DNA of 64,000 bases. Origin: Styela clava (taxonomy: Eukaryota). The notes under the pieces were generated by a model. That model did no database searches. It worked only from the letters and a program-made list of their open reading frames with translations, and had not been told where the DNA came from. Positions 1,202 to 64,000 of this stretch are shown here, one piece after another; within the stretch, counting starts at the first letter, position 1; every line of letters begins with the position of its first letter. The stretch lies in NCBI RefSeq assembly GCF_964204865.1, contig NC_135253.1, positions 6,262,001-6,326,000 of the forward strand, written 5' to 3'. The translations under genes and the position numbers were made by a program.

Positions 1202-4200
1202 GTATTATTGACAGAGGTGATGGCGCAGGCTACGCCAACTTAGATGAAACCAATATTCCAAATCCTTTTTGGGAAGATCATACTTCCCCTATTCCACAAC
1301 AACTTGGGGATCCGAGATGTGGGTATATCGAATTTCCTGGCAATGGAGAATGGAAATCTGGCGCTTGTGGCGCAAGGAGAAAATACATATGTTCCTATGT
1401 GCCAAGTATGTAATGTACTTATTTCAAGTATAGGCATCCTAAAAAATAGAAGCAGGAAAATTCTCTTGATGAAAAGAAAGACAGCCTTGATAGTAAAACT
1501 TATGTTTTTGTTTCAGTGGATATTCAACAGCGAACCGCCGCCAAAAAGCAAATAAGATGTCACGTGTGCCATGGAGAATCTTCAAATCAACGATGTAATG
1601 CCCGAGGAACAGTTTTATGTCCACCAAATGCGGTAAGAAGTGACAAACGAAAGGATATTTTTAGAAAACATTTGATATAAAGTGGATATTTTTATATATG
1701 TTTTCTAAACTTTCAAGCGTTATTGTAAAACAGGGTTCTTGCCAAAACGAGGTACGAGTTGTCAATGGAAAGAAAACAATTACTAAACGATGTAAACAGA
1801 CGAGAGCGTGCATGAATAATTTTCTTCAAAATTCAAAAGCGATGTGGCTCGAGGCTCAATGTAAACCCGGAAAGGGAAAGGGAAGCAGTGTGTGTAGATG
1901 TTGCTGCGAAGGAAACGGATGCAACGCTGAAGAACTGCCTTGTCTAGCAAGTAAGCATTTTAGGGTCAAAAAAGTTACAAAAGGAATATATGGTTTAGTG
2001 CATGAAAGACTGATTAGATCAAACAGTTTTTTTTTTCTGTTGTCTTCCATTTCGTCCATAATGACCTTGACTTACTTTGTTCGCACCGGTTCTATAGAAC
2101 CGTCTCGCGGAATTTTATGAGTTAAGCGAACCGGTTGGCATTAATGGTTACTGTCAATGTTCTGCTTGTAACGCAACCGGCTGAAGAATATGACTTTTGT
2201 GAAGGAACCGGCTGACAAAAAATTTGAATCCCACCACTGGATATATTCGTGATTATGCAATGACCTATTGATAAACTATTTTTGCAGAGGGGTGTGATCC
2301 TATACGAGTTCCAAAAGATGGACGTATAAAATGTACAGATCAGTATATGGTTGGATCCCTGTGTACGTTTTCTTGTGATTTCGGATTTAGCATTCAAGGA
2401 AGTAAAGCAACTCGATGTACAGGAGAAACAGGATGGACATCACCCGTACCTGAATGCATACGTAAGTTTTGGTTGTCTTCGGGATTTTTTACTTTGCGTA
2501 TTTTAATTATTAATTGGGAAATTAAAGCAACAGCTGAGGCATCTAGTGACATTGGGTTTCTTTGACCCAACTTTTCACGTCGTCCGGTTGATGTACTAGA
2601 TTGCATATATATATATATATATATGTTGTCTACTGATTACCTCAAAGTTTTTGATCAAAGTTTGTTCAATTCTGCTCACCTTGTATGTCAGTGTTGATAT
2701 GGTGGATTTAGTGCACCGTATCATGTCATATCTGCTACCAACTAACTAAATCTGTATCTTCTATCTAAATATGTATCTGTATCTGCATATTCTAGTTTCT
2801 TTGTAGTAGCCTATAATCTTTCAATTTCGAAATCAGTTCTTGTTGCCTGACGTTTAACCAACTTACTTAAAACTATACATTTGATGAATGACAAGTTCAA
2901 TCAAATTTTTAATTTCTTGGAAACACTTGAGCACAATCAGTTAGATGCCAAACTGCAATTACTCTTTTTATTAAGGTACGCAGTGTGCACCAATCATGAC
3001 AGCACCCAAAAATGGGAGCGTTGCATGCACTAACATTAATTTTGGTGCATCGACGTGCAGATTTAAATGCGACTACGGATATTATCTCCGAGGACTTTCT
3101 CTAACAACTTGTCTTGGAACTTCTCGATGGAGCGTTGAACGTCCAACCTGCCATTGTGAGTAAACATTTGAAGAATAGAATGGTGAATTTTTTCAGCTGC
3201 TAAATGACAAAAATATTGATTGTATATATAAGAAAATAATCCATTCGTATTTTACCATTCGCTTTTGAAAATCATTTAGAATGTCCCTTGCTTTTAGTGA
3301 TAACGTGCGATAGACCCCTAAAACAGCCAGAGAATGGACGAATTGTCAATCGAAGCCCGGGAATATTTGGTGAAATAACAACATTTGAATGTGTCGAAAA
3401 ATATTTCATGGTTGGAAATCCAGGGATTCGATGCACGGATAGAAATTTAGATGGAATCGGCGAATGGACAAATAAAGAACCAACATGCAGACGTAAGTGC
3501 ATAGATTCTCAGATAATATATACCATTGCAATTTAAAAACTTGGCAACTTGTTTATGTCGAAAAACTATCGATTGAATTGATTGAGAAAAGAACGATCTA
3601 TGTTGTCATGCAATGATTTTGAAAACTAATTAGCTCTGGTTTTACTGTTGTCTTATGAAGATCAATATATTTTGTTTTTACGTAGTTCGGTTTTCAAAAC
3701 ACGCACCGTAATAAATGATGATGAATTGGCCCGTGACGTCATTTCATAAAAATAAATTTGATAGGTTTCATGTTTGACAATTAAGAAAAATGTGCAAACA
3801 GCATGCGATTAAAATAAACGTGGCGAGTTGAGGTTGTTTTCGATATACACTGTCAAAAGTTCTGAAAAAGTTCGGTACTCGGCACTAGGACCGATGTAAT
3901 TCAGTGATGTGAGTTGATTTGAAATTTTGATTGAGAGCATTTGAATGATCAGATAACAGGTTTCTGTGTAGGTCGCATAGGCTATTTTTGTACTGCGTTT
4001 AGTCATTTGACCTTCGCGTCCTTTACTTTGATCATTGCTCTCTTGCTTGTATTCAATCTTTTCCGGGCTTGGCTTTCTCACCAAATATTTCACAGAGAAA
4101 GCGCTAATCGAACTGTGTTGAAAAGTGGTTTACCTGTACCAACGTCGTGTCCCTGTAATGAAGCATTGCTCTCTCATTATTCATAATCTATACGCGTGGC

Positions 4201-7200
4201 GTAAAATAAAGAGATTTGGTTTAAATATTGGAAATTGGCAGTTCTTTGATATTTACAGCTAATAAAGTCTTTTATTTTATCTAGTTATACAATGCTCGGC
4301 TTTAAAAAAGCCGCTAAACGGGAGAGTAAATACAACGACTCAAAACAACGAAGTTGGAACGCTGGCAACATTTAATTGCAATGAGGGGTACTTTCTAGTG
4401 GGCAACCCTACTTTAATTTGTGAAGGTCCTACCAAGATTGGTTTTGGTAAATGGAGCGGAAAAGAGCCTAAATGTGCAGGTTTGTATAAATCATTTTGTC
4501 TTTGTACGTGTTTACTGAGTTTGAATGGGTATAGTTTATTGATCTTCATCGACTCACAGGAGAAAATGTAGACCCTAGGTCAAACGCTTGGATTTCATTG
4601 TACTTCAATTGTATATTTATTGGATTTACTTGTGTACTTCTGATCTGAGGAATGAATATGTTTAAGATTTCGCATTCACATGTTTTTATAGACATCTTTT
4701 TTTTCTCGTTTAAATATGCAATTTGAAAAAAAAAAATAATGTGGCGTTTCATAACAAAATATCCAGTACTTCAGTTTTCAGAAAAAAATCTTTTGTGTGA
4801 ACAATGTTCTTGATGTTATCTTGTTTTTCATCCAGTTATCAAATGCCCAAAAGTGACTGCACCTATCAACGGAGAAGAAATTCAGTCAACAACATCGACA
4901 CCACGGTATGGAACTGTGATCACCTTCACTTGTAAATTTGGATATTTTCGAAATGGGGCTGAAACGTCCATCTGCGTTGATCAAAATGGAGATGGGAAAG
5001 GAGAATGGACGAATAAAGTACCTACATGTAAACGTACGTGAACTAGAACGAACACCTAGATAAAGGTCGCGTCGACCGTTGATTGATTGAGTGACGCGTC
5101 ATCAGTCGCCGCGACCGTACCTAGGTGTCGCTATATAGGTAACCCCGTACACTTGCAAACATTTGTTGTCGCATTGGCATTTGTACAACAGATTAACCAA
5201 GTCAAATCATGTTTTGATTCATCGTTTTAATTTTAAAGCAATTGTACATTTGAAAAAAAGTTGTGCATTTATTTCAACACGATAGCTATTTTTCTTAGAG
5301 ATCGTTTGCCTGCCAAATTTGAAGCCACCAACCAACGGTCGATTTGTCCGGAACGGTGGTTCAGCTTTATCAACGACATCCGAGTTCGCCTGCGATCGGG
5401 GATATTTCCTCTTAGGAACTTCGAGAATTACTTGTCAGGATGAAAACAACGACGGCGCTGGAGAATGGAGCCAAAGTTTGCCAACATGCAGACGTGAGAT
5501 AATTTTTATTTATGCTGCAGAAAATCTGGCGCTTTATTTCTATTGTAATATATTATTTTTTCAGTTAAAATACGTTTTGTTGATTTAAAATTTTGAAGCC
5601 CAGATCTTGGGTATGACAAAGATATTTGATCACATACTTTAATATTACCTAATATCACATACGTTAACGTTACCTAACCAATAAATACATCCGAAACCAG
5701 TTTCAATGAAGTATGATTTTTTTAAATTATTTTTTTAATATGGCCATTTTCATCTCTATCGTTTTCAAAAAAAAATTATAACATCTGGAATTTTTTCTAG
5801 AAATTAAGTGTGAGCCGTTTTTCGGTGTTCCAAGTAATGGTGGAATGATTTGCTCAAAGGAGAATGATTTTGGAACAAATTGTCAGTTTTCGTGTGATAC
5901 CGGATTCTTTTTGTCTGGATCTACATCATCATCATGTGTTGATGACAACGGAGATGGTGTGGGCGAATGGAGAAATCCAGTACCCACTTGTGAACGTAAG
6001 TATTAGCATACCAACATTTTAATTACACTGTTGCCTATGCCTACTATGGTGTTCTAATCAAATGTTCTCTCTACTAAGTCTATACTTGAATATTCGCACC
6101 TCAAACTTTTCTATACAAATACCAGATGAAAAAAAGATGATCAAGTTGTTTATTGCTGATGATTTGATTTATGCAACAAGTCTCGCGCCCCTTTACCGTA
6201 TATCATGTTTAAAAGTACTACTAAACTTCTGTTCAATTTTAGCAATCGTATGCTCTTGGCCACTGAGTCCTTCGGCACATGGAAGTGTTTCGTGCTCGGA
6301 GGAAAATTTGCACGGATCGGAGTGTGAATTTAAATGTGAAGAGGGTTATTGGCTGAAAGACTCTGATCTTCTTGTATGCGAAGGAGACGGCAGCAGAAAA
6401 GATGGAAAATGGTCAAGAAATCCTCCAATCTGTTTTGGTAGGTATTACTATTAGCAATTATATTGCCTGGTTTAAAGAACAGTACAGATGGAATTTATAA
6501 ACAAACTCATATTTTGTTAAGAAATTAACTGTGACAGACCACTCATGCCACCGGAATTCGGATCAGTATCTTGTGACAACAGACAAAAGTTTGGATCAGC
6601 ATGCACATTCTCTTGTGAGACAGGTTACCATCTTGTTGGCGACTCTAAATCTGTTTGTCGTGACGTCGATAATAACGGGAAAGGTGAATGGAGTGGAGAC
6701 AACCCATCTTGTAAAGGTATTTTAACTATTTGAAGAGTTATTTAAAGTTAATTATTATATTCGTTAGCTTTCGTGTTGTACAGCATTCTAATTCAAAGGT
6801 GTTATCATTAAACAGAATCCAGTTGTCGCCCGTCATTTAATGAAATCAAGTTTGGAAAAGTTACCTGTAGTAATGAGAATGGATATGGAAGTTTATGCCA
6901 ATTCCAGTGCAATCCGGGATACAAGTTGAGCGGAGAGGAAACTGTTTCATGCGGCGAACCAAGAACTGAATTACGAGCTACATGGAGCAGCGTTAAACCA
7001 AAATGTGAAGGTGAGAAACGCTTCTTAAATGAAACGTTGAATTACTCAAAACTTAAGCCTCACCGTTTGTTTGTGAGTAAACAAACAACTGTTCAGGATG
7101 CTTGATTATATTATGGATATAACGTAGACATCATAAATCATAGCACTAAGCAACATGCAGTACAGCGAGAGAGAGAAAGAGCGCAACAGTGACATCAAGC

Positions 7201-9710
7201 AACATAAATAAAGTATTACTAATGACGTCATAAATATCATCTTACACCTACTACACATAGCATTAACAACAAATTTATATTACTATATTTCATAAAGTAC
7301 GTCGATGTTCCGAACCGAAAAATCCAGTCGGTGGAAAAGTGATCTGTAGCGATGACTCAGTGCTGGGAAGCGTATGTACGTTCTCATGTGATGCTGACAG
7401 ATATCTCAATGGAAAAGGTAGAAAGACATGCATAACTGAAGATTCCAACCCCGGGTCTGATGTAATTTGGAATGACCCAGATCCTATTTGTCAGAGTAAG
7501 TTGATTGTTTTCATAAAACAACATACTGACACTATAGTTAAACTCTATTTATATCTGCATTTGAGGCTCACCAATAACTTGATATATTTTTGAAAATATT
7601 TAATTTTGCACAAACGTTGAAAACGATTTTTGATCTACATTATAACGTAACATGTAATTAAGCAAAAATGGAGTTATATAAAATAGTATTTTCAAATTCT
7701 ATGTATTTCAAACTGTTGTTGTGACTTAGTGATCACCTGCAAAGAACTGGAGTCAACTTCCGACCTTCTCACTATTAAATGCACCAACTCCCAACTTTCC
7801 CTCGGTACCGTCTGTGCATTTGATTGCAAGGAAGGATATTCATTAGTCGGCAAAGGAGTAACTCAATGTGCAGAACCGACTTCCCGAGATGTAGGAACTT
7901 GGACAAATTCTCTGCCAACTTGTCAACGTAAGAGCATTTTTCGACAGCAAAATATTACAGAAATTAGAATTGTAATACTGAATACATTTGCTAATATATT
8001 TTGTTTTTTCAGGAATAAAATGCCAGCCAGAAAGTTTAAGTCCGTTGAACGGAACTGTGGAATGTACCGATGGAAACTTCTACGGTAGCGTATGTACTTA
8101 TCAATGTGGTTACGGTTATATTTTGATTGGAGAAAGTACTAGAAAATGTCTAGAAGATTCAGCCTGGGACAATTTAGAACCGGAATGCGCGAGTAAGTAG
8201 AAAATTTCTTAAGTTTTAAAATATATGGATTAATTAGTATTTAAGAAGCTATGTTTAATTTTGCTAAATAAATAAATATATATATCTATATTAAGATCGT
8301 GCGATGCTTATTTAATCACAAAATGAAGGCATTAGGTTTATATATATATATCACATTTAAATATATTATTAATGATAACATGCATTTATTTAGCATTGAC
8401 CTGTGACCCCCGCATTGAACCGCCTGAGAATGGAATATCAACTTGTTCCAATGAGAATTACATTGATAGCGTTTGTCAATCATTCTGCAACTTGGGTTAC
8501 AATATGGATGGAGAAATTAATAGTCGATGTGTTATAAAAGACGATGGAACCTTGAAATTTACAAATCCGTCTCCGACCTGCACACGTACGTCATTTTTCC
8601 CCACAGCAGATTTTTCATATTGCATGCCCTTGTGACTGTGGTTGCACCATATTAGTATTGAACAAAATGCCAGTAACTAATCATCTGACTACAATAGAAA
8701 GGCAATAATAGAAGAAAACATGCGTAATTACGCTTACAGATTGCGTTTCAACGTCAACTGACATTCTAAAATGTACCCAACTGAGGCAACTCATAGAATC
8801 GCGAGTCTCGCGCCAATCGGCTCGTAATGGACCATAACTACCATCACCAACGGCATATGTAGTTCCAACAAATCTTGGCCTTCCAGTCGTTGTCTATTCC
8901 TTTGCTTTAAGATAGATATACTTTATTTCTCAACGAGGGCGCGCGACCTTGAATTGTCTGACCTAAGTTTCATAACTTCTGACGGCGCCCTAAGAACAAG
9001 AACAGATACATAAAATAAAAATAAAAAAATAAATAAAAATAAAACGGCGCTCCAGAAGTGTGTGTACCAATATGGAGGTAACTAATTTTGTTCAGAATTG
9101 GAATAAAATTATGGCTTAACCCTAACCTGGTACACACACTACGGGAGTACCCTTCTAACTACCAGCATTGTCTGTCTGTTCATTCAATAATAGTGAAACC
9201 TTCGTTACAGCAATCTATTGTGATGACATTGCCGGCCCAATAGAAGGCGGAAATATACTATGTGGGATCGGACAAGGAAACGTTGAGGGTAACAGATACG
9301 ATACAACTTGTTTCTTATCATGCAGTAATGGGTGGAGAGCTATTGGGTCAACTCGAACAACTTGCCTTGGATTTGGAGAATGGGAAGGCGGTATTGGAAG
9401 ATGCGAAAGTAAGTCAGATCTAACTTTAACGTAACCACGCAGCGATGCTGAAACTTTCAACATCTCGATGATCTTAATTCACATACTTGTTAATTAATAT
9501 TTGTTTATTTATAATTCAGAAATAATCTGCCAACCTCCACTTGGAAAACCACCTAGGGGAGACGTTGCTTGTAACAGACGAGAAAACATACCAGGAACTG
9601 CTTGTACTTTCAAATGTAATCCGGGATTACAACTGGACAGGAATGGAGTAATAACCTGTCAAGATAATGGCCAATGGAGTAGTGAACCTCCTGCTTGCGT
9701 ATCTCCATGA
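1202..9710 (+). CDS. Secreted selectin-like mosaic protein: C-type lectin (C-terminal half) + Ly6/uPAR three-finger domain + 16 CCP/sushi domains; 5' end probably upstream of the window
   Basis: GT-AG exons join in frame. 1202-1405: GIIDRGDG...FW...PRCGYIEFPGNGEWKSGACGARRKYIC (CTLD end). 1517-1632 and 1734-1950: IRCHVC...CRCCCEGNGCN (LU domain). CCP exons, all phase 1: 2288-2461, 2976-3155, 3298-3492, 4285-4479, 4836-5033, 5299-5493, 5801-5995, 6243-6437, 6522-6716, 6816-7010, 7298-7495, 7730-7927, 8013-8192, 8394-8585, 9211-9408, 9520-9710 (stop TGA). AATAAA at about 9948. Confidence 0.9.
9046..9151. mobile_element. Short MITE with ~24-bp terminal inverted repeats (family E)
   Basis: GGCGCTCCAGAAGTGTGTGTACCA ... 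TGGTACACACACTACGGGAGTACC. Related sequence recurs at ~25139-25360, 33663-33772, ~38890-39037, ~49695-49875 and ~52206-52394. Confidence 0.7.
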
Positions 9711-11359: not shown

Positions 11360-14300
11360 TTAGTTCTCGTCTGGAAACGTTCTTGCATCTTTGTTTATTC
11401 TTGTATAAGATGGTTCGACGGTTTTACTTTGGTCTTCGTATATATACAATTCTATAACACTGGGCACTGACTGCGATCTGAAAACAAAACGATTTAAATA
11501 TATTAACTGACATTCGATAGAGTGTGGAATTCAATGTGCGGGTATTCTAGCGAATGTGGATTGTAACTATATTTCAACACTCGGACGAAAACCGGAAACA
11601 CACGTCATCAAAATTAGTCGATAAGAAGAACGCTATGCACAAGTAATCTAAGGCTTGAAGCTGTCGCGATAAATCATAATCGTGGAAATAGCTAGAATGG
11701 CATATTTCATTGAATTCAACATACTAATAAAAAGTGGTTAAATAACATTGAAGTCCATAGTTACAATCCACATTCGCTACAGTATATATGTATATTAACA
11801 AGGTTGTATCAGATTGTAATGGAATAAAAAGCTCCGAATATTCCATTCGAAAATTAAAAGTGATGATAAAAGTGTTGCTATCAAATAACTAAACGATTAT
11901 TTTATGTGGAAATTCACATTTCAATACGATATCTCTTACGTTACCTTCATTAACGAACTTTTACAACAGTTTTCATACCTCTTTCTACGATTTTTTTCTT
12001 CCTCTACAAATTTTTCAACTTCGCCCTCTTCATCCCTACGTCTGTCTTCTTCTCTTTTGGAAGCACATCGAGTTCCTTCTGATCCGTAACAAGTGCATTC
12101 CATACCAATTCCTTCAAACATGTAGGGCCATCTTTCACATTTTCCGCGAATTGGGCAAGTTGTCATTCCTTTAAAATTACAAACAAGAGAGCAATGCTAA
12201 AATATAATAATATATTTGTCCGTATTATGGACACAATAATCAAATGACCAAAATAGCAACCGCAAAGTAAGCCAATGTTAAAAAGCAGTAGCTTACCGAA
12301 TGTTATAAAGATTTGTACCGAATGTCATAAGATAATGTGCCCATTAATCAGAAATAAAACATTTGGGTTGCAAAGTCAGGTCTCAACGAAATCGAACTTC
12401 TAACCTTCTCCCGTCTCTAAGTACTAGAATTTGACAACAAATTGACATTGCAAAGGCTACAAAACAAACCAATATAACAAATTTTGAAACTCGCGTTCTT
12501 ACTTCTAGCAAAAATTAATAAATCACTAACCCAAAGGGCATGCCGAGCAAGATTGCGAATCATCTTCTTCGCAAGGTATTTTAGTTGGTTCTACTTCATA
12601 CTCCTCTTCCATAAAATTGATTGGAACAGTTTTAACTAAAAAAAATGTAGCATATATGTATATATAATACAAACGATATTTATCAGCAAGGCATTTTCAC
12701 CATTATGCAAACTAGTTATTTTGTTGAAAGTTACTCGTGTTGTCGTGTGACATTTATGTTTTTATCCCCGTGCATTCGAGTTTGTGTTGGCGAGGAGGTA
12801 CAATAATTATCGGCTGATAATAGTATAGTTTATCATGCATATCAGCAAAAATTCGTCTGCTTTTAAAGCGTTCAGTAACGTGGACTCGCGGAAGCTATGT
12901 AGTATCAAAAGAAACTTTTCAAGTTCATAGGCGATCAAATTATCTGCACAAATTTGAAATAACTAATACGCATGTAACTTACTACATTTGCATTGATGTC
13001 TTCCAACTCTTTCCCCAAAACATGTACACTCACATGATGAATCCGTTGTTGTTCGTTCCCAGGTTTCACCAATGGCATACATCATACCAGTCTAAAGAGT
13101 ATTGCTGGGTATAGTTTGAATTAACGCATAAAAGCTAATGAAGGATTTACGAATGATATATCTCGCAACCAGGGAAACAAAAACTTGATAAATTAGCGCA
13201 TTGTTTCGTCTTCTGTTCCACTAATAGTAATTCGGGGTGTGTGATATAGCGCTGAAATATAATATCTATGAAATAATGCAAAATTGGGTTCAAAACATGG
13301 GAATTTTCGTGTTTTTCAATTTTTGAATGGCGATTTCAGACAACATGCCTTCAGCCAACAAAAATGATGGCCCGAAGGCGTTTATACTTTTGTTTTGGTA
13401 TAACGTTGTATGCGTCATAGTAGTCTGGTACAAAACTGAAAAAATATATATATATTCTTATTCTACGCTTTACCGAAATGCAATTTTTCTTCGCCCGCCG
13501 CATTCAATAGAATATCATAGCGATAAACAATGTAAACCTCAGAATTCCTAAGTCTAAAAAATACGGAAAACAATGTCTAAAATCCTATTGTTTGTAAATT
13601 TAAACATTTTTGACTTGCGAATCATTGTTACAATTGGAAAACCAAAAATAGTATGTAATATTGGGTATAATGGACGTTTTCCAGGCCCTACAACCCTGAA
13701 AAAATCTTCCCTATATATACTTTCTCATTGCGAAAAATTTTCAAAGCTGATTTGGAATTTTTTTGGAAAGTTAGCGCTTACAAACTGGCACACATGTTCA
13801 AAACTATCGTTTTTATTCAAAACAATAAACCACGTGCCGGTTATAGGTACTGATAGCTAATTTTAGGCGAGTCTTTCGCAGTTTTTACGTTATCAATTTA
13901 TTATTATTGTAACTGAACTAAAAGCCCTTGAAAGACATAACGACAATTAAGTTATTTGATTCACAACTATTTTTAAAAACACAACTAAAAACTGACGGAC
14001 AACACGGAGAACTACCGAAAAGAGGCAATGTTTACAACCACGCTTGAATATCTGTCTGAGCGAAAGAAGAGTCTGAGCGGCGGCATAAAATCCAATTGTT
14101 ACGTCATTGTTAACTTATTTCTGATTTGTAATTATTACGGAAATAAACAAGGAATTTGATGCTCGGGATGGTCCCAATCGTCATTCGAATGTCCACCCCA
14201 ATAGGGCAAAAATTACACTTGTTCAGATGGTTTATCATCCAGACGGCTAAGCTTCTTGTTTCAATTAAACCAGATTTAAAATAAAACTTTACCTCTTTAT

Positions 14301-15130
14301 CTTGACACTTCTCTCCATCGGGACATATATAAGACCTAGCACAACATTCGTCTGAAACGGGTTCGCATCCAGGTGGATAACTCATTGGAGGACATCTGTA
14401 GCAAAAGTAAATAGTAAAACAGATATAAGCAAAATGGCTATTACGTATTTATGAGCAAACAATATGCCTCATAATAGGACTCGATCATTTATACAGTTCA
14501 GAAATATGAATTATGGGATGAGAGAAATATTAAAAAACCGCTGCCTATACCCTGTTATACACATTGACGTACCTGTGAACACATGCCCCTGTAGGAATCC
14601 AGAGATTTTTAATTTTTCGAATTACACATGTGCATTCAAATTTACATGGCGATCCTTTGAATGTGTGGCCGAACGTTTCCCCTTCTTCGTAGTAGGTTGA
14701 ATTCACGTAGCATTTTTCTGCATCGATTTAACAAATATAATTGAGAATATAAGGATGATTGATGGCAAAATACAATTGAATGTTATCTCACGCTCTGTTC
14801 AAACTAGACTCTCAGTGATCTCCAAAACGATGTAAAAAATTGATCCAAAGTGCAATCGACATATCAAAATAACTGTAACTGTTATTGCGGATAACTGGCT
14901 TTTCAGAAGTATGATTATTAATAATTCAAACGTAGCTTTGTTAAAGTAGGAAATTTCGCATAAAGAATAACCAAAAATGTTATATAAATATATATATTAT
15001 GATTCGTAATCTTTAAATAACTAACTTTAATATAAAATTCATGCTTACTTTGAGCGTCCGATAGCTTCATACAGCACGTTGACAACCAGGTTGAAGAAAA
15101 AGTCAATAACAAAATTGTAAACGGAAACAT
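11360..15130 (-). CDS. Small secreted cysteine-rich protein (~283 aa): signal peptide, VWC domain, FN1-like domain, acidic linker, second Cys-rich module, RRKR site, C-terminal peptide
   Basis: Seven GT-AG exons with matching phases: 15130-15049 (MFPFTILLLTFSSTWLSTCC...), 14717-14573, 14395-14293, 13091-12983, 12635-12531, 12168-11979, 11477-11360. Total 852 nt, in frame. Minus-strand AATAAA at 11342-11347. Confidence 0.8.
11543..11784. mobile_element. MITE with ~28-bp TIRs ending in TA (Tc1/mariner-like)
   Basis: TATTCTAGCGAATGTGGATTGTAACTAT at 11543 and ATAGTTACAATCCACATTCGCTACAGTA ending at 11784 (26/28 inverted match). Lies in the last intron of the VWC-FN1 gene. Confidence 0.75.
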
Positions 15131-17421: not shown

Positions 17422-20400
17422 ATGAGAGTGATTGCTTTGATCAGGTGAGTTTAATGTATTTTCGGCGTTAAAAAAGCCCAAGTGACCACAATATCTGAAT
17501 ATACCATAACTTATTATGACTAAGTTAAGGTGTTTCATGCGTTTGAAACAAATAACTAGACCAGAGCTGGTTTGCCATACGATAAAGCTGTATTACTGTC
17601 GGCTTTTTTCTCCCCCAGGATAAATATGTAAAACTATCCTATTGTTTCGCCCTCTCATCATGAAATTTTAAATCTGTTTCACAGATTGCAGCTGGTTTTA
17701 CCGTTACAAACTAGCCAACATGCATCTTATTATTACATAATATATTATTTTCAGTGGTGGAAAAGACAGTTGTTTTAATATGATGCATGCTCATCTCGAA
17801 GGCCATGATATAGTTGGTTTGGCTAACCTTTATCCAAGTGATACTAGTAAAGGTAAATTGCCTGCTCATCTACAATAAGTGTTTAATTGACTGATTGCAC
17901 ATGTAGCCTTTAATAAATGAATTATACTACTATATACTGATATACGTATTATTTTTTACCTTATAGACATAGAAAAAGTTAAATAGTAATATTGGATTCT
18001 ACATCGAAAATTTTTCAATGCATAAGTGTGTAGTTGAAGCTTTAATAATTTGGATATTTGAATAAATATGTTAACATTCAGTTCCAACATATTCCAACAT
18101 CACTTCATATTTAGATGTCATTTTCAATGTTACTATAATCTTGCACATATTTTTGCTTTTAAAGATGAACTTGATAGCTACATGTATCAAACTGTCGGTC
18201 ATGAGGCAATCGAACTTTATTCGGAAGCAATGGAAATTCCTTTATTTAGAAGGTGAGACATCCTTTATATTGATTGTAAGTTAATGAGGAAAAGAGTGTC
18301 TATAGATTGACTGGTCTATAAAATATATCAATAATTCCTAAAAAGTAGTATCATGAGACACACACTAATTATTCATTATTATTTTCATATAAATGAGTTA
18401 TAGTTGTTCAGTTTATTTTTTCTTTTAGAAAAATATCTGGCACATCCAAAATAATTGATCTGAATTATGTGCCTGATGACAATGATGAGGTTGAGGATCT
18501 GTACGAATTACTGAAGGAAATTCAGGTAAAAGAAGATTTCACATGCATTAGGAAATTGAAGCCTAATTTAATGTTTGTAAGGCGAACAATGCTTGAAATC
18601 AAAAGTAGTAAAAAAAATTCGGAAGCACTCATAAATTAACTCCGATAACTCAAGCTTTTTTCTCTGAACAAGGCTCTGTACAATGGGCCACTGATATCTA
18701 GATCAATAAGTAAAGAGACATTATGTTGGAAGGACTGGAATTTTTGGTCATACATAAGCTAAGACATTGCCTATTGAATTTATTAGACCTTGGGTGGGTG
18801 AGGTAGTGGCCGTGGGATTTGAACTTGAGATGTGTAACCTGCGATGCCAACATATTTGAGTCTGGCGCTTTAACCACTAGGCCATTGTGGCCTGGCGGAT
18901 GTCCACAACATCGTGAAATATTCTAAACTACCCATACCATTCACCTTGCGTTTATACAGAAACCAAAATACTAATTTTCAATTTGTTTTGCAGAGAACGC
19001 TTCATTTTGATGCGGTCGCAAGTGGAGCAATATTATCTGATTATCAGAGGATCAGAGTTGAATCTGTTTGTTCAAGACTTGGTGTTACAAGTTTATCATA
19101 TTTGTGGAGAAGAAATCAAGAAGAACTTCTACAGGTGTTGAAAAGCATTGACTTTTGTCATTTGAGCAACCATGCTTTTAATCCCATGCATCAGAATGAT
19201 ATGTGTTCAATTGTATAACTATCCTAGTAAAATTACATCTTCGAACTGTTTTAAAATTTTGATTGTAGCCTCAGACTCTTCAACTATGATAGCATTGCTG
19301 GATCAAATATCGGATTTAAATCCCATGCTCACCACCTTACCCGGGGTGTGGCAAATTGGATAGGGCAATAGAAAATAAAATGCCAAACCGAAAAAGTCCC
19401 GTGTATAATGTCGAACAATGTATCAGCAAACATTCGAGACTAAAATTCCTATCTAAATTAAAATTTGTGCTGCCAAACTGGAATCTTATTCTATTTGTCT
19501 CACATTGGTGTTTGTTATTTAGGAAATGATTGCCAGTGGATTGAAAGCAGTTTTGATAAAAACAGCAGCTCTTGGACTTGATCCTAGAAAGCATTTGGGA
19601 AAAACTCTAGATGAAGTATCAGAAACATTACGCAAGTTGGTAAGTATACAATATTAGTGTTTTACCTTACATCTAGACATTTTTGCTCTGGTAGTGTAAC
19701 ATTTTTGCTTAATGTTAGCGGATGAACTTAAATTAACAGACATTAAAATTGGAAAATATTCTGACAAGAATGTAATAACGAAAAAAGGTGTAAATTTAAA
19801 TTTTTGATTTTCACTCACTATAATGCATAATGTGATATTAGTTTTTGAAACTTCAATATTATTATGATACAACCAATGCAATCGAAATTACTTTGAGTGG
19901 TATGTCCTCATTTATCCTAGAATAAAGAGTATGGTTGTCATGTGTGTGGAGAGGGAGGAGAATTTGAGACATTTACATTGGACTGCCCTCTGTTCAAGAA
20001 AAGAATTGTAATGTGAGGTTTGGATAACAATTTACTACATTGCCTAATAGATTTTGATCTGATTTCGATAATTATGAGGTTTATGGCCTTATACCAAAAT
20101 GCTGCTTCTAGTTATCACTAGAGATATATGCCTTAGTATATCATACTAATATTGTTGCAGTGATGGCAGTGATATAATAATACACTCAGATGACTATTTT
20201 GCACCAGTTGGTTATTTGAAGTTGAAGAAAATGCATTTGGAACAAAAGTCTGAAAGTGACATTCAACATGTCGACAAATGGCATCTTCTTTCTTCAAAAA
20301 AGTGGGAGGAGAAATATGTATCTGAGCTCAACACTGACAAACTTGACTCAGGAATCAACAATAATGGAGAATTTTTACGGGTATATTTTTTGATTAATAT

Positions 20401-23400
20401 TACTTTGGTTTGTCAGGCACTGAATTATTCGATAGGATTTACATGTTTATCCTGGGGGAGAAAAGCCGGTAAGATGACTTAACCCAGGGTGGTCCAAACC
20501 TGGGCCCGCGGGCCAAGAGTGGCCCGCCGCTTTATTATCTGTGGCCCACAGCGCATTTGCGGGATGATGAACAAAAAATGCAATTGGTGTTGTTTCGTCA
20601 TAAAAATAACCAGAAAATCATTTGACGTATTGTTACATCACTAATTTCGCTTAATTGACTAGTGTTATGGCCAGCTGAGGCAACTAGCGAAGTTGAATAA
20701 TGTGCTTGGCTAGTGTAAATTGTTAACTGGCTTTCTATTTCTATCTTTTTGTTCGGGAATATATATATTCGGGTGGTTTTTTGCAACCAGCCTAAATAGT
20801 ATTCAAAAAATGCTGCCTTTATGTCAGAAAATTTAGTGATTACCCTTTATCTTATATGAGTGTGAAAAGAAAGATGACCAATTTAAACATATTTTTGACT
20901 GGATATGGGAGGAAAAATACCACATGGCTTGCTTCATGTGTCTGAAGGTTACCAAAATGTAGATATAGTAAATTATTTACACGTTCTAGCGAGTTTTTTG
21001 GTGGTTTGTACTGTTTACCTATTTTTGGCACTATTGTGGCCCGCGATTGATACAAAAATAATAGTATGGCCCGCGAGGCCGATAACCTTGGACCACCCTG
21101 GCGAAACCATTTGGCGAACACCGGCCTCTCGTTCGTTTACCATGCCATGTCGGGTATGGGATTAGTAAGTTATTTGTTTTTGGAAATATGGACTTGATGG
21201 TAGAGAAAGCCGTCACCGACCAGCAGTTATGTGAACCACCCTACGGCGGCGAGGAGTCCAGCAATCCTCTCGCACATAACTATCGCTGCATGGTATTCAA
21301 ACCTGCGAATTCACGCAGAGTAATGGCCAATGAGCTTCCTTTGGGTTTTGGCAAAAAATCCCTCCATCCTGCATTCATATGAAATGTATGAAACTGTATT
21401 TTTCAAGATGCTCAAGTAAGGAATTAATGCATATTATTAAGGTAGGCTATATTAAAATTGTCAAATTGTGTAGTTTTCAAAGAATGTTTAATAGGATTGG
21501 ATAGGATTTATCCCGGGGGAAAAGGAAAGCCGATAAGACAACTTAACCATATGGCGAACCACGACCTCTCTTCCTGTTACCATTCCATGTCGGGTATGGG
21601 ATTAGTTAATTATTTGTTTTCGGTAGCATGGACTTGATGGTGGAGGAAGCCGCATATAACCATCCCTGCATGAGATTCGAACCTGCGAACCCACGCAGAG
21701 TAATCAGAGTTGCGGTGACAAGCGTGTCCTAATGCATTGCATGATGAGCCACACGTGATGAGCGTACATTCATTTTATAACGAAGTTCATCGTGAATCGA
21801 TTGTCCTTGTTTATAAAATATACTTGAGCGTTAATTAATTGCAAACATTTTCATCTGATTAGAAACAACAATCACATTGGATATTTTTCTCTTCTGTGAT
21901 AGATTTCATGGGAAGAATCTGCCACTGTGGATCCACAGAATGAGCCTGGGGTGACCAATCATGAGAAATTTCTAACGGTATCGAATCTAGTAGGAACAAC
22001 CTCAGATGAAGTTACTTCAGATATTGTAGAAATAGTGACATTACAACTGCTTGAAAAATTAGTAGGTAAATGTGTATTAGGATTAAATTATACATTACAA
22101 TATGAAGAGTCTTCTAAGTCGAATCTATTTTCCCATTGGTCTCGAACATTAAAATATTGACAATTTTTGTATTTACCATGAGCACTAATGATATTCTTTC
22201 TATTTTTGGCAACATCAATTTATTTGTGGGTGCGTTGTGGGATGGCCTAGCATAGCAGTTGCCAAACTTTTAGTTCGTGTGGTGCCAAATTATCAGGTGA
22301 AAAACTCATGGCGCACTCACTCGAAATAAATTGCTGCCTTCAAGTAACACTCAATTTTGTGATCTTTATAGTGTACTTTATGCTTTTTTAAGTTTGTAAA
22401 CATGCAGGCCTAAAGAATAAAAGCAATGTTAACTCTCCTTCCTCATATCTGCCTGAGTTTCCTTTGAAATCTAAAAAAATCACTGATGTTCAATAAACTC
22501 TGTTCGACAGCTAATTTGATTCAGTTATTCGTATATATTTGTTTGTTGTTCCAACCACCCCATTCCTCAACTTGATTTTTCAATTTCCAGGAATCTTGTC
22601 AAAACATGGACATAAACAAGACAACATTTGCTATGTTCAAGTGAATGTATCTGAAATGTCGCATTATAAACATATCAACAAGGTTTATACTCAATTTTTC
22701 AAACAAAATCCTCCTGCTAGAGCATGCATTGGTTGCATCAGTAATTCCAACAGAACAGATAAAAAGACAATTCTTCAAATTTATTGCATATCATGCAAAG
22801 AGCATTCCAGTAAGAAATGTATGCATGTTCAAGGATTATCCCATTGGGCACCTGCAAATATAGGTACATTTCAATATTCTTTTTTGACAAGCAATACTGA
22901 TGGTCAAGCGAATCTATATATGTACAAATAGGATCTGAACCTGATGTTATTTAAATTAAATCATTGAAACTTTTCTTGTGCCCACAAAGTAGAAACATAA
23001 ATATTGGTCTATCGAGTTACCAGTAAGAATTTTAATATACCAGTAAGTAAAAACTTCAGTTATGTGAAATTCACTAATTTTAATGCTTCAAGACTCGCGA
23101 CAATCGTTATTTATTATCACATAATTTCACGGTATCCTTCTTTTTAGTCTCATAACTTCAGTAATCACTCAGAGGTGAATACGCATTTCCTTGCTTTGAG
23201 CAAATTTTCTCAAAAATTACGCATTAACGCAGACTGGAATCAACGCATAATTTAGCAATTTGTTCATTGATAATATGTCACACTAAATTTTGGTTTTCGA
23301 AGCAATGCAAGTGTTAATTCTTATCAATCTTTTTTAGGACCTTTTAGTCAGTGTGTTCTGGTGGATGATTTATTATTTGTGTCAGGAACTATAGCACTTA

Positions 23401-25078
23401 TACCAGGAAACTTACAACTGATAACTGGTGGAGCAGAAACCCAAGCCTCACTTGCTCTGCATCATGTTGAGGTAAGTTACATATTACTGTGATTCAAATC
23501 TTCAATTATCTACTTAGATGAATTAATTTATGTGTCGAATAATATACCAGGGAAATGAGGAATGTACAATTAAAGGTTGGAACTACTGGTCTAAAGTGCT
23601 GTTGATGTTAAACACGTTTATCTTTATCTAGGATCTGATTAAGGACTATGAAGAAGTGTTTCTGGTTTTAGTTATGTATATATCAACCCTCTTCTCTGTC
23701 TTCATTTCACTCTTGTGATTGCAGTATCTAAAAATGTTTTCTTTTATTACGTAGAATGTTATGAATGCAATGTCCAGAACTTCTTTAAAAAGTTTCATGC
23801 AGTATATATGTTACCTCACAAATGTTGAAGATATATCTCATGGCATAAAAGCATGGACTTGTGGAACTGATAACAGTGATAAGATCTGTGAAGTTATCTA
23901 TCTTGTCGTGGATGAATTGCCTAAAGAAGCATCTGCTGAATGGCAAGGAATCACATTATCTTCAACAGAAGAACGTGATATTGGGTGTCATTCTGGGCAT
24001 TCAAAACATGACAACATTGTTGTAACTTGGAATTATTGGAAGGCAGCAATGGAAAATAAAGAAGTTTACTCATTTACATCTTCTATAAGTAAGTTTGTCA
24101 GATATTTGTAAAAGAGGGGATGAATGTGAATGTCAAAGTGTGGCGCATCGTGCTAAGTGTTAGGAATACGCTCGCCACCACACATCGGATTCGCAGGTTC
24201 CATGCAGGGATAGTTATGTGCAAGAGGATTGCTGGACTCCTTGCCACCATCGAGTCCATGCTTCTGGAAACAAGTAACTGTCTAACTAATCCCATACCCG
24301 ACTTAGGTAACCGGACAAGAGGCCATAGTTTGCTATATGATTAAGTCGTCTTATGTCTTTCCTCTCCCCGGGATAAATATGTAAATCCTATACTAAAAGT
24401 TTGTACATACTAATATTATTGTAATAAAAAACTGCAACTGATAAGCAGTCATATGAAGATCAGCACTATTACCCAGCACTGTTTTACGTGTTCATTCCAA
24501 TAACTGAATGATCATTACTGCGTAATTATCCATTGTCAGGTCTTGCTTCAGGACATGTTACTTCACTGGAATTGAAACACTGTGTCAACTACATTCAAGA
24601 TAGTGTTAGATCATGGTTGAGTGATTGTCATTTGAATACACAGCATATCGTACAGGCCTCTCTTTTTTACACTGGAGAAAACCTTTTACCTGAAAGCGTC
24701 CTCGGTATAGTAATAGTTAATAATTATATTTTTGTGACACTTGGCATAAACACTTATGCAATTTGTTGGTTTGTTGGTATCATCTTTGAAAAATTGTTGC
24801 AAAACGAGAATGATTTTGGTTCATCTTCTTAAAGATTTGTGTATTAAAGTGTTCGATAATGCAAGGTGAATTTTAAAATCTGCAACGATCGTTATGACAG
24901 CCTGCATTTAACCAATAACTTCACTTTCCTTATTTCTTTATTAGAGTATTGGAATAAAGCTGAAGAAAGTTCACAAATGCCTCTCATCACACCAGTACAA
25001 GTGAAGAAAATATATATTAATAATAGATTCAATTGCATGACAATTTCTTGTTTAGCCTACAAAAAAATAAAACAGTGA
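17422..25078 (+). CDS. DPH6: Diphthine--ammonia ligase (diphthamide synthase), long form with C-terminal RidA/YjgF-like domains
   Basis: Motifs MRVIALIS|[54 protein letters not shown] and SHWAPANIG|PFSQ. 14 exons: 17422-17444, 17755-17852, 18165-18252, 18429-18525, 18994-19134, 19523-19639, 19921-20012, 20161-20380, 21903-22065, 22591-22863, 23338-23471, 23755-24088, 24540-24704, 24945-25078. Confidence 0.95.
18790..18892 (-). mobile_element. tRNA-Leu(CAA)-derived short element (family C)
   Basis: Reverse complement reads ATGGCCTAGTGGTTAAAGCGCCAGACTCAA...GTTCAAATCCC (A box, Leu-CAA-like anticodon arm start, B box). Related copies at ~44325-44430 and ~44878-45002. Confidence 0.6.
20431..21330 (-). 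mobile_element. tRNA-derived SINE (family B) interrupted by a hAT MITE
   Basis: 20431-20484 and 21101-21330 are the two halves of the same element found uninterrupted at 21491-21752 and 24138-24392. Confidence 0.75.
20485..21100. mobile_element. hAT-type MITE nested in a SINE
   Basis: TIR CAGGGTGGTCCAA...TTGGACCACCCTG with GGCCCGC subterminal motifs; degraded 8-bp TSD (ACTTAACC / GCGAAACC). Confidence 0.8.
21491..21752 (-). mobile_element. tRNA-derived SINE (family B)
   Basis: B box GGTTCGAATC on the minus strand, shared core CCATGTCGGGTATGGGATTAG, ATCCT-type tail. Confidence 0.75.
24138..24392 (+). mobile_element. tRNA-derived SINE (family B)
   Basis: Starts GTGTGGCGCATCGTGCTAAG (A-box-like), contains CTAATCCCATACCCGAC, ends GGATAAATATGTAAATCCTAT. 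A 3' fragment of the same family is at ~17560-17641. Confidence 0.75.
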
Positions 25079-25580: not shown

Positions 25581-28456
25581 TCATTTGACTGGTAGTCTAT
25601 GTCTAGAACTAGCACAAATGTGCCCACATCCTGTTGGACATCTGCCTTTGCTATGTGGATAATTAAACCAATCTTTCATGCAATCTATATGTCCACCATG
25701 ACAACATCCTTGGCACCATGTATACAAACTTTTCACAACTAACTGGCACAGTGAACATTTTATACCAGCCCCCATGCCTGCTTGTTTATGATCATTATCA
25801 GAATGTTTTGAACAACTCCATGGGTTTGCAGTTGGCATTCGTTTATGGCAAATTCCGCAACAGGTGTTTAGGGTGGATGAAGTGTTCATATTCTTTATGG
25901 AAGGAAGTGTGCTTAAATTAATAATCTCAGTGAAATGGTTCCATAGTTCATAACGACTGACCAATTCCAGATATGAATTTTGCCAATGTTCCAGCAGATG
26001 ATCGTCAATAGGAAGACTTATTGAGGGATAATAATGACCCAGGACAATCATTGTACATGTTATAATTTGAATGTTGTTGCCGTTGCTTATCATAGACTCG
26101 TACATTGAAGAAAGCAGTTCAGTTTTACGACTGATTGACAAAGCAGGGTTTTCATAGGGTCTGGTGTAAACCACAGGAGATACTGATAATTGTTCATGTG
26201 GAGATGAAGATTGTGAATGCAGGGAGACAGCTGAAGGGCCAGAACTCCGACTATTATTCTTCTTCCTCCATTTTTCAGGGTTATGATTCTGCTGTGATGT
26301 TGAAGATGGAATCATAACAGGAACGGCAGTTATTAGTTTCTCTTCTTCTCCACTTATAGCTGGATCAAGCTGGTTTTCAAAACCATCAGTGGCAGTTAGT
26401 ACAAGTCTCTGTTTAAAAGCTTCAGATGGAAGTGTAGCATCACTGATTGTATCGCTAAGAGGATACCAATCCTGATCCATGTATCCTTCTGGTCCTGAAG
26501 AAATACCACCGTGATGACCTTTCCCAAAGTCCTCACTCAAATCATACTCATCAGAGTAATAACACTCTTGTTCAGATGTAGCATGGCCCTTTGCTATATC
26601 TGTCAGGTAATGCTCAGTCTCTGGATCTGAGTGTTGTTCGGATTCTTCTCCGTTGCTTTCCCCAGTAACAATCCCATTTTTCATAGACTCTCTCCCAGTT
26701 TTAAGACTGCTTATTTCTGCTGAGTTTGTATGAAATGTAGTAGAGTTGCTTCGTTCTGTCTTTTTTGTCGAAACTCCTTCAAAAAACCTTTCCAAATATC
26801 TCCATATGTTTGCATCAATGCTCATTTGAAGATCATCACAAACTTTTGCATTGTGTAAACATAGTTTATTAAATGCCATTCCTTGTAGCTTGTATTGCTG
26901 GGCGGCCTTGATAAGACTTGAAGGATGTACGTCCGAGGAAGTAGGAAAGTCATCTTCTTTGATAGGAGTGATACTGTGTATCCCAAGCTCTGATTTAGCA
27001 TTTAGAAATCGAGCAAATTTAATATTCATACTACTAGTAGACAATGTGTTTTGTACCCACGAGTTTGTATCCAGTTTTGGAGCGACCCCAACAACAGTTC
27101 TAAAACCAAACCGTGTCATTCCTTTAGTCTTAGTACTAGGTATGGCATCATATGAATTTGTACTATCAGTGGACGCATGTCCTATATATCCTCTAGCGCT
27201 TACAGAAAGACCAGAAATGTTACAGTGTTCTGATGGGCGATGTGCATCTCTAATGGAATGTTGATATAGAGTCCCATCTTTAGAACATGAAAATAGAATT
27301 TCTGGATCATTTTTTTTCCACGCTATACCAGTTGTAACATCAGTGTGTTCTGTAAAATGAGCAAACGGCATGTATGGTCGTCTCATATCCCATACATTGA
27401 TAGAATGGTCCAGCATCATTGCTACACTTGCAATCTGTTCTCGTCGTTGCGTTCTCCACCGAGCCATGGCAACTAAAGAATTTGTTGGTATCACCATATG
27501 CTCAGACATTTTGTGATCTATCATATCCCAAATTTTGACTTTATTGTCTCTGCCTCCTGTTGCAATTCTCTGTTTATCTTTGGCATCCGGATGCCAATCA
27601 ATTGAATAAACAGATCCTTTATGGGCTATGAACTGCATCAAACAGGAACTTGTGTTTCTGAAATAGAAAATTATAATAATCAAACTTTTGTCATATGAAA
27701 CTAGCTTATATTTCTCGGTCATGACTTGAAAATTTGTTCAACTTGCAATGGTGTTTACATTTCATGATTAAATTCAACACGAAGACTTTTGAACCAAAAG
27801 CATAGAAGATCAAAACTGATTAATTCCAACTTTTAACAAACTTAAGGCGTAATTCACCTGTAATCCCAAACTTGAACAGAACCATTGTCAAACGATGCCG
27901 CAAATTGAAAATATTCATGAGGAGAAAATTGCACACATCGAACACCATCAGTTTTACTGGAGAAACTGGCAATACATTCCTTTTTTCTCATGTCAAACAT
28001 TTTCATTGTACAATCTTGAGAACCACTAAGCAATCTCCCAGGCTCAGAACTATGAAAACATACTTTTGTAACAGTCCTTTTATGATCAGTAAATATTTCG
28101 AGTTGTTTATTTCTGCCTGATGCACTTAAGTCCCATGCAATGATAGCTCCATTTGTAGCAGCAGTTGCGATTAAACTTTCATTTAAATGATTCCATGCCA
28201 CATCAGCACAGCTTAAATTGAGCCCTTGTCTTCTTCCGACTCTCAAGTTTATTTTTTCCTTAAAACAAGTGTCATCTACTGAATATATTTTCAAAATAGT
28301 TCGTCCAGCAACTGCTATCATAGAGCTGTCTTTGTTTGCTGCTAGCATGTTGATAGGTCCACCCACATCAACATACATTGTGCAATGTTGGTTTGCATAT
28401 GTTACTCCATTTGAGATATTAGTGCCAAAATCTGATACTATTTGATTTCTCTTCAT
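25581..28456 (-). CDS. WDR24: GATOR2 complex subunit WDR24
   Basis: N-terminal WD40 repeats (LNLSCADVAWN, HKRTVTKVCFH, WDMRRPYMPFA) and C-terminal RING (WCQGCCHGGHIDCMKDWF...CPTGCGHIC). Two coding exons, 28456-27858 and 27657-25581. A further splice acceptor (CTTACAG) lies at 28501 in the 5' UTR. Confidence 0.95.
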
Positions 28457-60211: not shown

Positions 60212-60787
60212 TACTATGGAGTGATGCAACATATGAGAAAACTTCATTATCTGAGATAAGCTCAGAATAGTCAAACTCAACCGTTTTGTACAAAAACACA
60301 TCAAAGAGGAACCGCCATTGTATTGGTCGCAAAGAATATTTGATTAAATGATACGGTTCATAAAAATCCATTCCGTGCGTCACGGGTCAGGAGTCTCATG
60401 ATGACAAGATCAGCTCTGTGGATATTCCAGGGCACATGAGGAATGACTTTGCAATTCACAAAAAGTATATTGCCAGCGCATATCGTAACACCGTAACTAG
60501 TTACCGCCACGGGAGTCCGCAATTCATCATGACTACGCACAACACTACTGATACGAAATTTCAGTAGCCGATGTCCACTACACCAGTATTTGGTCACTGC
60601 ATGCGCGAGACCGAGGCGCGGTCCCTGTGCCTACTTTGCGCTAAATAAAACACCCGCTATCACACTGGCGACTGAGCTATTACCAGTACTTCATAAATCG
60701 CTGAACTGGCAGCGGTACCGTACCTGGTGCACCAATATTTGCAAGGAATTGAATGCCCACCCAGGAATTCTAAATAGTAATCTTAAC

Positions 60788-63911: not shown

Positions 63912-64000
63912 GCCTGACAGATTCAACCTAATATTTTAATATCTATGATATAGGAATAAATAGTTTCTCATTTAGATTCTGAAACATGTATAACTTTACT

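Follow-up and report, generated by a model that had tools for sequence, protein, structure and literature searches.

A secreted lectin and CCP protein of Styela clava

The window analysed here, 64,000 nucleotides of AT-rich, eukaryotic DNA from the ascidian Styela clava (RefSeq assembly GCF_964204865.1, contig NC_135253.1, positions 6,262,001 to 6,326,000), contains a gene for an apparently secreted protein with 16 complement control protein (CCP, or sushi) modules, five of which carry an acidic loop that we predict to bind Ca2+. The gene lies at 1202-9710 (+) in 19 exons with AG/GT ends and a single open frame. Its product is XP_039248480.2 (record P0025), with 0 differences across residues 106-1307; an older record, P0004, has 7 differences from the window frame. 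Residues 1-105 of XP_039248480.2, which belong to 5' exons, could not be located in the window. For the 13 joints between 3492 and 9520, contigs of runs X1-X3 (three of the four runs compared) show GT..AG skips, with at least two of X1-X3 supporting each joint; the runs come from one study, and their status as RNA is a program's guess. In run X9 coverage extends over the lectin and Ly6/uPAR exons and reaches few of those for CCPs, to which we attach no meaning.

The protein begins with a signal peptide, its N-terminus being hydrophobic, and continues with a C-type lectin domain, a Ly6/uPAR domain and the CCPs; no transmembrane-like window was found beyond the N-terminus. Pfam searches with the full-length P0004 and with an orthologue, P0002, matched only Sushi and Lectin_C, the latter at residues 62-169 of P0004. 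The 16 CCPs correspond to 16 phase-1 exons, one each, and 15 of these exons, including all five with the acidic loop, pass the gathering score of Pfam Sushi PF00084 (20.7 bits), CCP11 falling just under it at 20.4. The four core cysteines are invariant in all CCPs, and the conserved Trp is present in 15 of the 16, with Phe in CCP14. Linkers between CCPs have 4 residues in 58/58 counted; in CCPs of known structure they are mostly 3-5 residues long, according to passages of PMC2806952. The Ly6/uPAR three-finger domain between the lectin domain and the CCPs was recognized through a profile of 10 family members, which matches LYPD1 (E 6.9e-8) and LYPD6 (E 8e-5); single family members match LU-clan Pfam models below the curated cut-offs only, and an ESM Atlas look-up of this part gave only scores <0.9. 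EPN, QPD and WND are the usual names of the sugar/Ca2+ motifs of C-type lectin domains, and none of them occurs in this domain in any of the three orthologues described below, which would place the predicted Ca2+ sites in the stalk and not in the head.

The names 'SVEP1-like' and 'CR2-like' in databases were given automatically and do not suit the architecture. Many CCPs are shared with SVEP1, identity with which is ruled out, as no VWA, EGF or pentraxin domain is matched in Pfam. Selectins, in which a lectin domain with sugar/Ca2+ motifs is followed by EGF, CCPs and a transmembrane segment, have the C-type lectin domain and the CCP array in common with the Styela protein; selectin identity is ruled out by Ly6/uPAR in place of EGF, by the lack of a transmembrane segment and by the lack of EPN, QPD and WND. 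The protein belongs to an ascidian family that combines Ly6/uPAR and CCPs, with or without VWA. This family of secreted CCP arrays is expanded, and in most members a Ly6/uPAR domain stands at the N-terminus and a VWA domain at the C-terminus (records P0032, P0040, P0042, P0075, P0098, P0148, P0149, P0165, P0168, P0171, P0172 and P0199-P0203); the named members are ascidian, and they are automatically called selectin-, CR1- or SVEP1-like.

In the literature searched, outside which most subscription journals lie, we found neither this protein nor a CCP loop that binds Ca2+ nor the secreted Ly6/uPAR-CCP-VWA family described, and no mention of the protein's accession was found in the papers searched. 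From the available sections of the respective papers, several candidates could not be tied to this gene: Ci-sushi (KH.C11.274; PMC8495957, PMC13225635), the 'SVEP1' and 'P-selectin' genes of endostyle (PMC9953650) and metamorphosis studies, and the genes of work on Styela tail regression (PMC11988888), Botrylloides blood cells (PMC12212465) and oikosins (PMC3390340). The Styela thyroglobulin-like protein, a Tg1-domain protein, is unrelated.

The acidic loops and their conservation

Numbered from the first Asp of each loop, the pattern C-x-D-x-[DN]-x-[DN]-G-x-G-E-W is carried by CCP3, 5, 6, 7 and 9 (Table 1). As a sequence-only reading of the window had described, all five loops are on the + strand, each following the penultimate Cys of its module and preceding the Trp, they occur in CCPs of both the 4-Cys type (CCP3, 5 and 6) and the 6-Cys type (CCP7 and 9), and CCP1, 2, 13, 15 and 16 keep the ordinary short loop, 5 residues in each. 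That reading had also assigned Dx[DN]xDG to all five, which holds for CCP3, 5, 6 and 7; CCP9, with Asn at position 5, falls outside the strict expression, which thus fits 4/5 loops. Glu9 is present in all five, and position 12 is N, N, Q, N and G. The remaining loops are left unmentioned in that reading: those of CCP4, 8, 10 and 12 have 10 residues and lack the motif, and those of CCP11 and CCP14 have 12 and 9 residues. D-x-[DN]-x-[DN]-G occurs in 5/16 exons, a number never approached in 20,000 per-exon shuffles that preserved composition, where the maximum was 2 (39 times) and 3 was never reached. The codons of the five loops differ throughout, so the loops are not recent copies of one another at the level of DNA.

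The same architecture of lectin, Ly6/uPAR and CCPs is found in Ciona intestinalis (P0001, with P0003 as a shorter form) and in CAB3266737 (P0002), which from its accession we take to be from Phallusia mammillata. Fragments with the motif were also found (P0192 from C. savignyi, and P0196). The Styela protein is 33-36% identical to the other two orthologues, and the acidic positions, on whose conservation the sequence-only reading had made its proposal of metal binding depend, are conserved in them: compared with 5/16 CCPs in Styela, the motif is present in 11/20 and 18/26, again in modules of both the 4-Cys and the 6-Cys type. The strict pattern was found in 18 records among 203 proteins examined, and all 18 belong to this orthogroup. 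The 203 proteins came from the best 150 of 7282 matches of a profile search and from word-limited searches, and are no census; within them no strict motif was found outside ascidians, and none in an orthologue from Clavelina, where paralogues were found. The Ciona records P0001, P0003, P0016 and P0023 (1964, 1578, 1850 and 1594 residues) differ by whole CCP blocks, and Ciona modules 4-8 and 10-16 include near-identical pairs, which together point to recent block duplication plus splice or allele variation.

For the pattern of conservation, loops were chosen solely for Asp at position 1, to avoid circularity, and 5 records yielded 36 that are distinct. At position 3 they have Asn (23), Asp (12) or Ala (1), and at position 5 Asp (31) or Asn (5); Gly6 is present in 35/36 and Gly8 in all 36. 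Position 9 is acidic in 30/36 (25 Glu, 5 Asp), the others being Asn (3), Ser, Thr and Val, while positions 0, 2, 4 and 7 are variable, with 9-14 residue types each. Glu is favoured at position 9 yet occurs at position 3 or 5 in none of the 36, which argues for a geometric pattern rather than a pattern of charge. An acidic position 9 also tracks an intact core (26/5/3/7, Fisher p=0.003, over 41 distinct 10-residue loops that are not independent and whose module boundaries were set by hand, loop counts varying slightly between regular expressions). In a background of 150 other proteins, loops with Gly two residues before the Trp have an acidic position 9 in 10/66 long loops and in 190/1661 loops overall.

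An AlphaFold2 model of CCP7 from a 5-sequence alignment has a predicted local distance difference test (pLDDT) of 90 and contains no helix. In it, motif residues 47-54 follow a strand (42-46) and lead into a bridge (55-56) that holds Glu9 and the Trp. In fold searches with Foldseek and VIA all listed top matches are CCP-containing chains, the best being CD55, Crry and CD46 (Z 10.6-10.8, root-mean-square deviation 1.2-1.4 A; CD55 by VIA, Z 10.8 and 1.3 A over 61 residues).

Table 1. Exons of the Styela clava gene and the loops predicted to bind Ca2+, in positions of the window
Feature	Position	Strand	Remark
Exon, second half of C-type lectin-like domain	1202-1405	+	Lectin_C match
Two exons, Ly6/uPAR three-finger domain	1517-1632, 1734-1950	+	Family profile vs LYPD1
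CCP1 exon	2288-2461	+	Short 5-residue loop
CCP2 exon	2976-3155	+	Short 5-residue loop
CCP3 exon	3298-3492	+	4-Cys, motif-bearing
Predicted Ca2+ loop, CCP3	3438-3464	+	DRNLDGIGEW, Asp1-Glu9
CCP4 exon	4285-4479	+	Motif-less 10-residue hairpin
CCP5 exon	4836-5033	+	4-Cys, motif-bearing
Predicted Ca2+ loop, CCP5	4979-5005	+	DQNGDGKGEW, Asp1-Glu9
CCP6 exon	5299-5493	+	4-Cys, motif-bearing
Predicted Ca2+ loop, CCP6	5439-5465	+	DENNDGAGEW, Asp1-Glu9
CCP7 exon	5801-5995	+	6-Cys, motif-bearing, AlphaFold2-modelled
Predicted Ca2+ loop, CCP7	5941-5967	+	DDNGDGVGEW, Asp1-Glu9
CCP8 exon	6243-6437	+	Motif-less 10-residue hairpin
CCP9 exon	6522-6716	+	6-Cys, motif-bearing, Asn5
Predicted Ca2+ loop, CCP9	6662-6688	+	DVDNNGKGEW, Asp1-Glu9
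CCP10 exon	6816-7010	+	Long motif-less hairpin
CCP11 exon	7298-7495	+	Long motif-less hairpin
CCP12 exon	7730-7927	+	Long motif-less hairpin
CCP13 exon	8013-8192	+	5-residue loop
CCP14 exon	8394-8585	+	9-residue loop; counterpart module motif-bearing in both orthologues
CCP15 exon	9211-9408	+	5-residue loop
CCP16 exon and stop	9520-9710	+	5-residue loop

Introns of the gene contain high-copy elements at about 2100-2246 and 9040-9157, where contig depth runs from the hundreds into the tens of thousands; in the second, inverted arms of 30 nt are separated by 58 nt, which gives it the look of a miniature inverted-repeat transposable element. A convergent gene at about 12000-14730 (-) has short Cys-rich exons with G-E-T-[FW]...C-x-C-T-C, reminiscent of modules of the vWC/pacifastin type. 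Judging from their translations, further neighbours may be DPH6 (17700-24800, +), WDR24 (25581-28456, -), an arylamine N-acetyltransferase (60590-61684, +), YEATS4 (62477-63151, -) and Gemin6 (63426-63926, -).

Comparison with known calcium sites and origin of the loop

CCP modules are very common extracellular blocks that, to our knowledge, are treated as metal-free, and we know of no Ca2+ binding by those of the regulators of complement activation. These (CD55, CD46, Crry, CR1 and C4BP) have the same fold as the ascidian modules and tolerate long, partly Asx-rich (Asp or Asn) hairpins at this site, but D-x-[DN]-x-D-G-x-G-E is absent from the alignments compared.

In the sections of Rigden et al. 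2011 (PMC3123361) on which our comparison draws, the ligands of the Dx[DN]xDG motif are the side chains of residues 1, 3 and 5 and the carbonyl of residue 7, and a later acidic residue completes the site. In the 'calcium blade' (integrin alpha/FG-GAP, PilY1, rhamnogalacturonan lyase) two residues separate this extra ligand from the motif, the setting is strand-loop-strand, and a D-to-E change is predicted to abolish binding; in EF-hands and dockerins the gap is five residues. Ca2+ is the metal in nearly all Dx[DN]xDG contexts, other metals being present as well in some crystals, and most calcium blades are judged to be structural or of unknown function (Table S1 of that paper). None of the 16 contexts in the same table is a CCP, and sushi, CCP and complement control are absent from the main text.

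With the calcium blade the ascidian loop shares the core, an acidic position 9 that leaves two residues between motif and D/E, the strand-loop-strand setting and an extracellular location. It differs in its host, which is a disulphide-bonded CCP and not a beta-propeller blade, so that the location at a propeller tip is missing, and also in its invariant Gly8 and in position 10, which is the core Trp of the CCP. Judged by its residues, the loop has blade spacing in a non-propeller fold and would work as a blade does without being one. The sequence-only reading had likened it to EF-hands, integrin propellers and dockerins together; the spacing is that of the calcium blade, and the comparison with EF-hands and dockerins holds for the six-residue core only. 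An EF-hand has flanking helices, I/L/V at position 8 and Glu12, and such an identity is ruled out by Gly8 throughout, by the absence of a helix from the model and by the residues at position 12, none of which is Glu.

Thrombospondin/COMP type 3 repeats, with the motif DxDxDGxxDxxD (passages of PMC10702128; PMC3123361, Table S1), share the 1-3-5-G6 core and the acidic position 9, and they too are many tandem extracellular sites with a structural role such as we predict for the ascidian loops. They differ in having Asp12 and an irregular calcium core, whereas the ascidian loops sit in a folded CCP, and since Asp12 is missing from all five window loops no binuclear site is expected. No TSP_3 match in Pfam is listed for the protein. 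A profile of the loop region, which at 22 residues is a weak test, found no known Ca2+-loop family in the PDB (4 weak matches, best E 0.52) and had 0 matches in Pfam. There would be a functional analogy with the calcium-binding EGF domains of fibrillin and with cadherin repeats, where Ca2+ near the junctions stiffens an extracellular rod; their fold and ligand set differ from those of the CCP loop.

The sequence-only reading described the loop as grafted into its modules, for which we find no support, and our analysis favours an origin in place over a transplant. CCP4, 8, 10 and 12 have loops of the same length without the motif, CR1 and CD55 have long Asx-containing hairpins at the same site, and ascidian paralogues have slipped registers. 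Background CCP loops have 5 residues in 2553 of 3050 cases, and the ordinary short ones (n=2477) form an Asx-Gly turn, with Asp (0.35) or Asn (0.27) three residues before the Trp and Gly (0.64) two before it. In CD55 (PDB 1h04) an 8-residue Asx-rich hairpin ends in NND-x-GEW, a near-miss of the motif.

Ascidian relatives from Ciona, Clavelina and Styela, mostly of the Ly6/uPAR-CCP-VWA kind, have 11-residue loops of the form x-D-D-x-[DN]-G-D-x-x-G-x; the Styela paralogues were surveyed through protein databases only. P0031 (Styela clava XP_039258803, 4777 residues) is an adhesion G-protein-coupled receptor with 7tm_2, GPS, GAIN, EGF_CA and 48 Sushi matches. Its CCPs number about 50 and are of the six-Cys type; in almost all of them the loop is Asx-rich and 13 residues long, x-D-x4-D-x-N-x-x-G-x, with Asp two residues after the Cys in 49/50, Asp seven before the Trp in 45/50 and Asn five before it in 49/50. 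Anchored at the Trp, a single pattern (Asp at Cys+2, Asx at W-7 and W-5, Gly at W-2) describes 34/47 distinct long loops of the orthogroup, 26/79 long loops of 13 paralogues (8 proteins), 43/51 of P0031 and 0/139 long loops from 154 other proteins; because the pattern was drawn from these same ascidian loops, only the 0/139 counts as a test. An N-glycosylation sequon ends 26/54 of the thirteen-residue Cys-to-Trp stretches of P0031, which calls for caution in interpreting the pattern.

A tree of the modules built without the loop (62 rows, 55 columns) has little resolution: of 59 inner branches, 10 are well supported. The motif label changes 14 times on this tree, compared with about 20.6 times when shuffled, and the motif-less CCP14 of Styela pairs with motif-bearing modules of both orthologues (87/86, a branch not marked as well supported), which suggests that the motif was lost there. 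For Dx[DN]xDG in general, PMC3123361 argues that a convergent origin is likelier, leaving open the choice between transplant and evolution in place, with few clear intermediates found.

A predicted Ca2+-binding CCP and its alternatives

Seawater and body fluids contain about 10 mM Ca2+, a concentration at which the predicted sites would always be filled and their role would be structural. The interpretation that we prefer, and hold to be somewhat better than an even bet, is that the motif-bearing modules form an ascidian subtype of Ca2+-binding CCP whose site evolved in place, is constitutively loaded and serves the structure of the protein. Taking this and the rival interpretations together, we consider it likely that the loops bind some cation. 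The metal-binding subtype proposed in the sequence-only reading gains from conservation in the orthologues and from an extra ligand, Glu9, at calcium-blade spacing, all of this at the level of sequence. The protein would be a secreted rod, its lectin-like and Ly6/uPAR heads carried on a string of CCPs with 4-residue linkers. In the motif-bearing modules, the hairpin that runs from the third core Cys to the Trp would form a site of calcium-blade type, each intact loop binding one Ca2+ through the side chains of Asp1, Asn/Asp3 and Asp/Asn5, the carbonyl of residue 7, Glu9 and water; Glu9 would approach from the returning strand, with Gly6 and Gly8 permitting the turn. In the CCP topology this hairpin starts at the Cys that is bonded to Cys1, beside the linker, and so Ca2+ would not just order the hairpin but probably also stiffen the junction with the preceding module, holding the heads on an extended stalk. 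The site may go back to an ascidian CCP with a long hairpin, having developed from its Asx-Gly turn; duplication of exons would have spread it, and some modules would have lost it again.

Several observations weigh against this interpretation. Eleven of the 16 Styela modules lack the motif, six of them with long loops, so many modules can do without it. Asn stands at position 4 in 17/36 loops, which a model of ligands alone does not require. Ordinary Asx-Gly turns and the NND-x-GEW of CD55 indicate that turn preference explains part of the pattern, and since the loops are related by duplication, the counts and p-values overstate the independent evidence. Gly6 and Glu9 are missing from most paralogue loops, the residue before the Trp being acidic in 9/93; the paralogue loops may not bind. 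A three-module AlphaFold2 model from a 2-sequence alignment reached a pLDDT of 46 and was set aside.

Some of these observations would also suit loops that are free of metal, their Asx turns stabilizing a long beta-hairpin by themselves and being copied by exon duplication. The Asx-Gly character of ordinary CCP turns, the Asx-rich long hairpins of CD55 and CR1, the relatedness of the modules and the ordered loop in an AlphaFold2 model that contains no ion are all compatible with this, but it leaves aside the strict 1-3-5 alternation with an acidic position 9 that tracks the intact core, as well as the absence of the pattern from the long loops of other CCP proteins. Moreover, the same protein tolerates long motif-less loops, and hence the motif is not needed merely to fold a 10-residue hairpin; we consider a metal-free loop improbable. 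A transplant of the whole loop from some other protein that binds Ca2+ bears on origin alone and would not conflict with Ca2+ binding here. In its favour, the loop exceeds the usual CCP turn by 5 residues and fits the calcium-blade consensus; against it stand the position of the motif inside its exon, away from the intron boundary, the motif-less loops of the same length, the 11- and 13-residue registers of ascidian relatives, the lack of any known Ca2+-loop protein among the matches of the loop-region profile, itself a weak test, and the argument for convergence cited above. We regard a transplant as highly improbable.

Two further possibilities accept a bound cation and change what it does or which it is. 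Ca2+ could be incompletely coordinated by the loop and bridge to a partner, such as another rod, a sulphated or carboxylated polysaccharide of the tunic or mucus net, or a microbial surface, making the array a multivalent Ca2+-dependent adhesive or cross-linker. The motif occurs up to 18 times per chain, its copy number differs among orthologues and Ciona records, its spacer positions vary, and the loop forms an exposed hairpin tip in the CCP7 model. In the ascidian studied in PMC9953650, according to passages of that paper, the anterior endostyle is enriched for genes annotated as SVEP1 and P-selectin, which could not be linked to the gene described here. However, Glu9 would supply a fifth protein ligand as in calcium blades, for which structural or unknown functions prevail, and bridging seems to us unlikely. 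Phlebobranch ascidians accumulate vanadium, and the two phlebobranch orthologues have 18 and 11 sites to the 5 of Styela, so one might think of a carrier or buffer for another hard cation (Mg2+, or vanadyl or iron in metal-accumulating ascidians). Sites of this motif have indeed been crystallized with other metals, but Ca2+ is the usual one (PMC3123361) and is far more abundant outside cells, a rod of 140-210 kDa would be costly as a carrier, and three species make no trend; we give this very little credence.

Beyond our preferred interpretation of a structural, constitutively loaded site, a broader one may be entertained tentatively, as somewhat less than an even chance: ascidians may have evolved a whole class of Ca2+-binding CCPs, with one site architecture in 10-, 11- and 13-residue registers, in the secreted Ly6/uPAR-CCP-VWA family and in the adhesion receptor with about 50 CCPs. 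The predicted site places a known Ca2+ motif in a new and very common host fold, so far in ascidians only, and this limits its reach, as does the frequency with which the motif is known to have arisen. The modules, of 65 residues and one exon each, are easy to express and bring together loops that are intact, decayed or shifted in register, which makes the question of transplant or evolution in place directly testable. If the sites bind as predicted, the protein would be a calcium-tuned CCP rod analogous to the calcium-binding EGF array of fibrillin. Should the broader interpretation prove true as well, the ascidian class would be to CCPs what the calcium-binding EGF domain is to EGF domains, and its loops would form a living series of intermediate steps by which a Dx[DN]xDG site evolves de novo.

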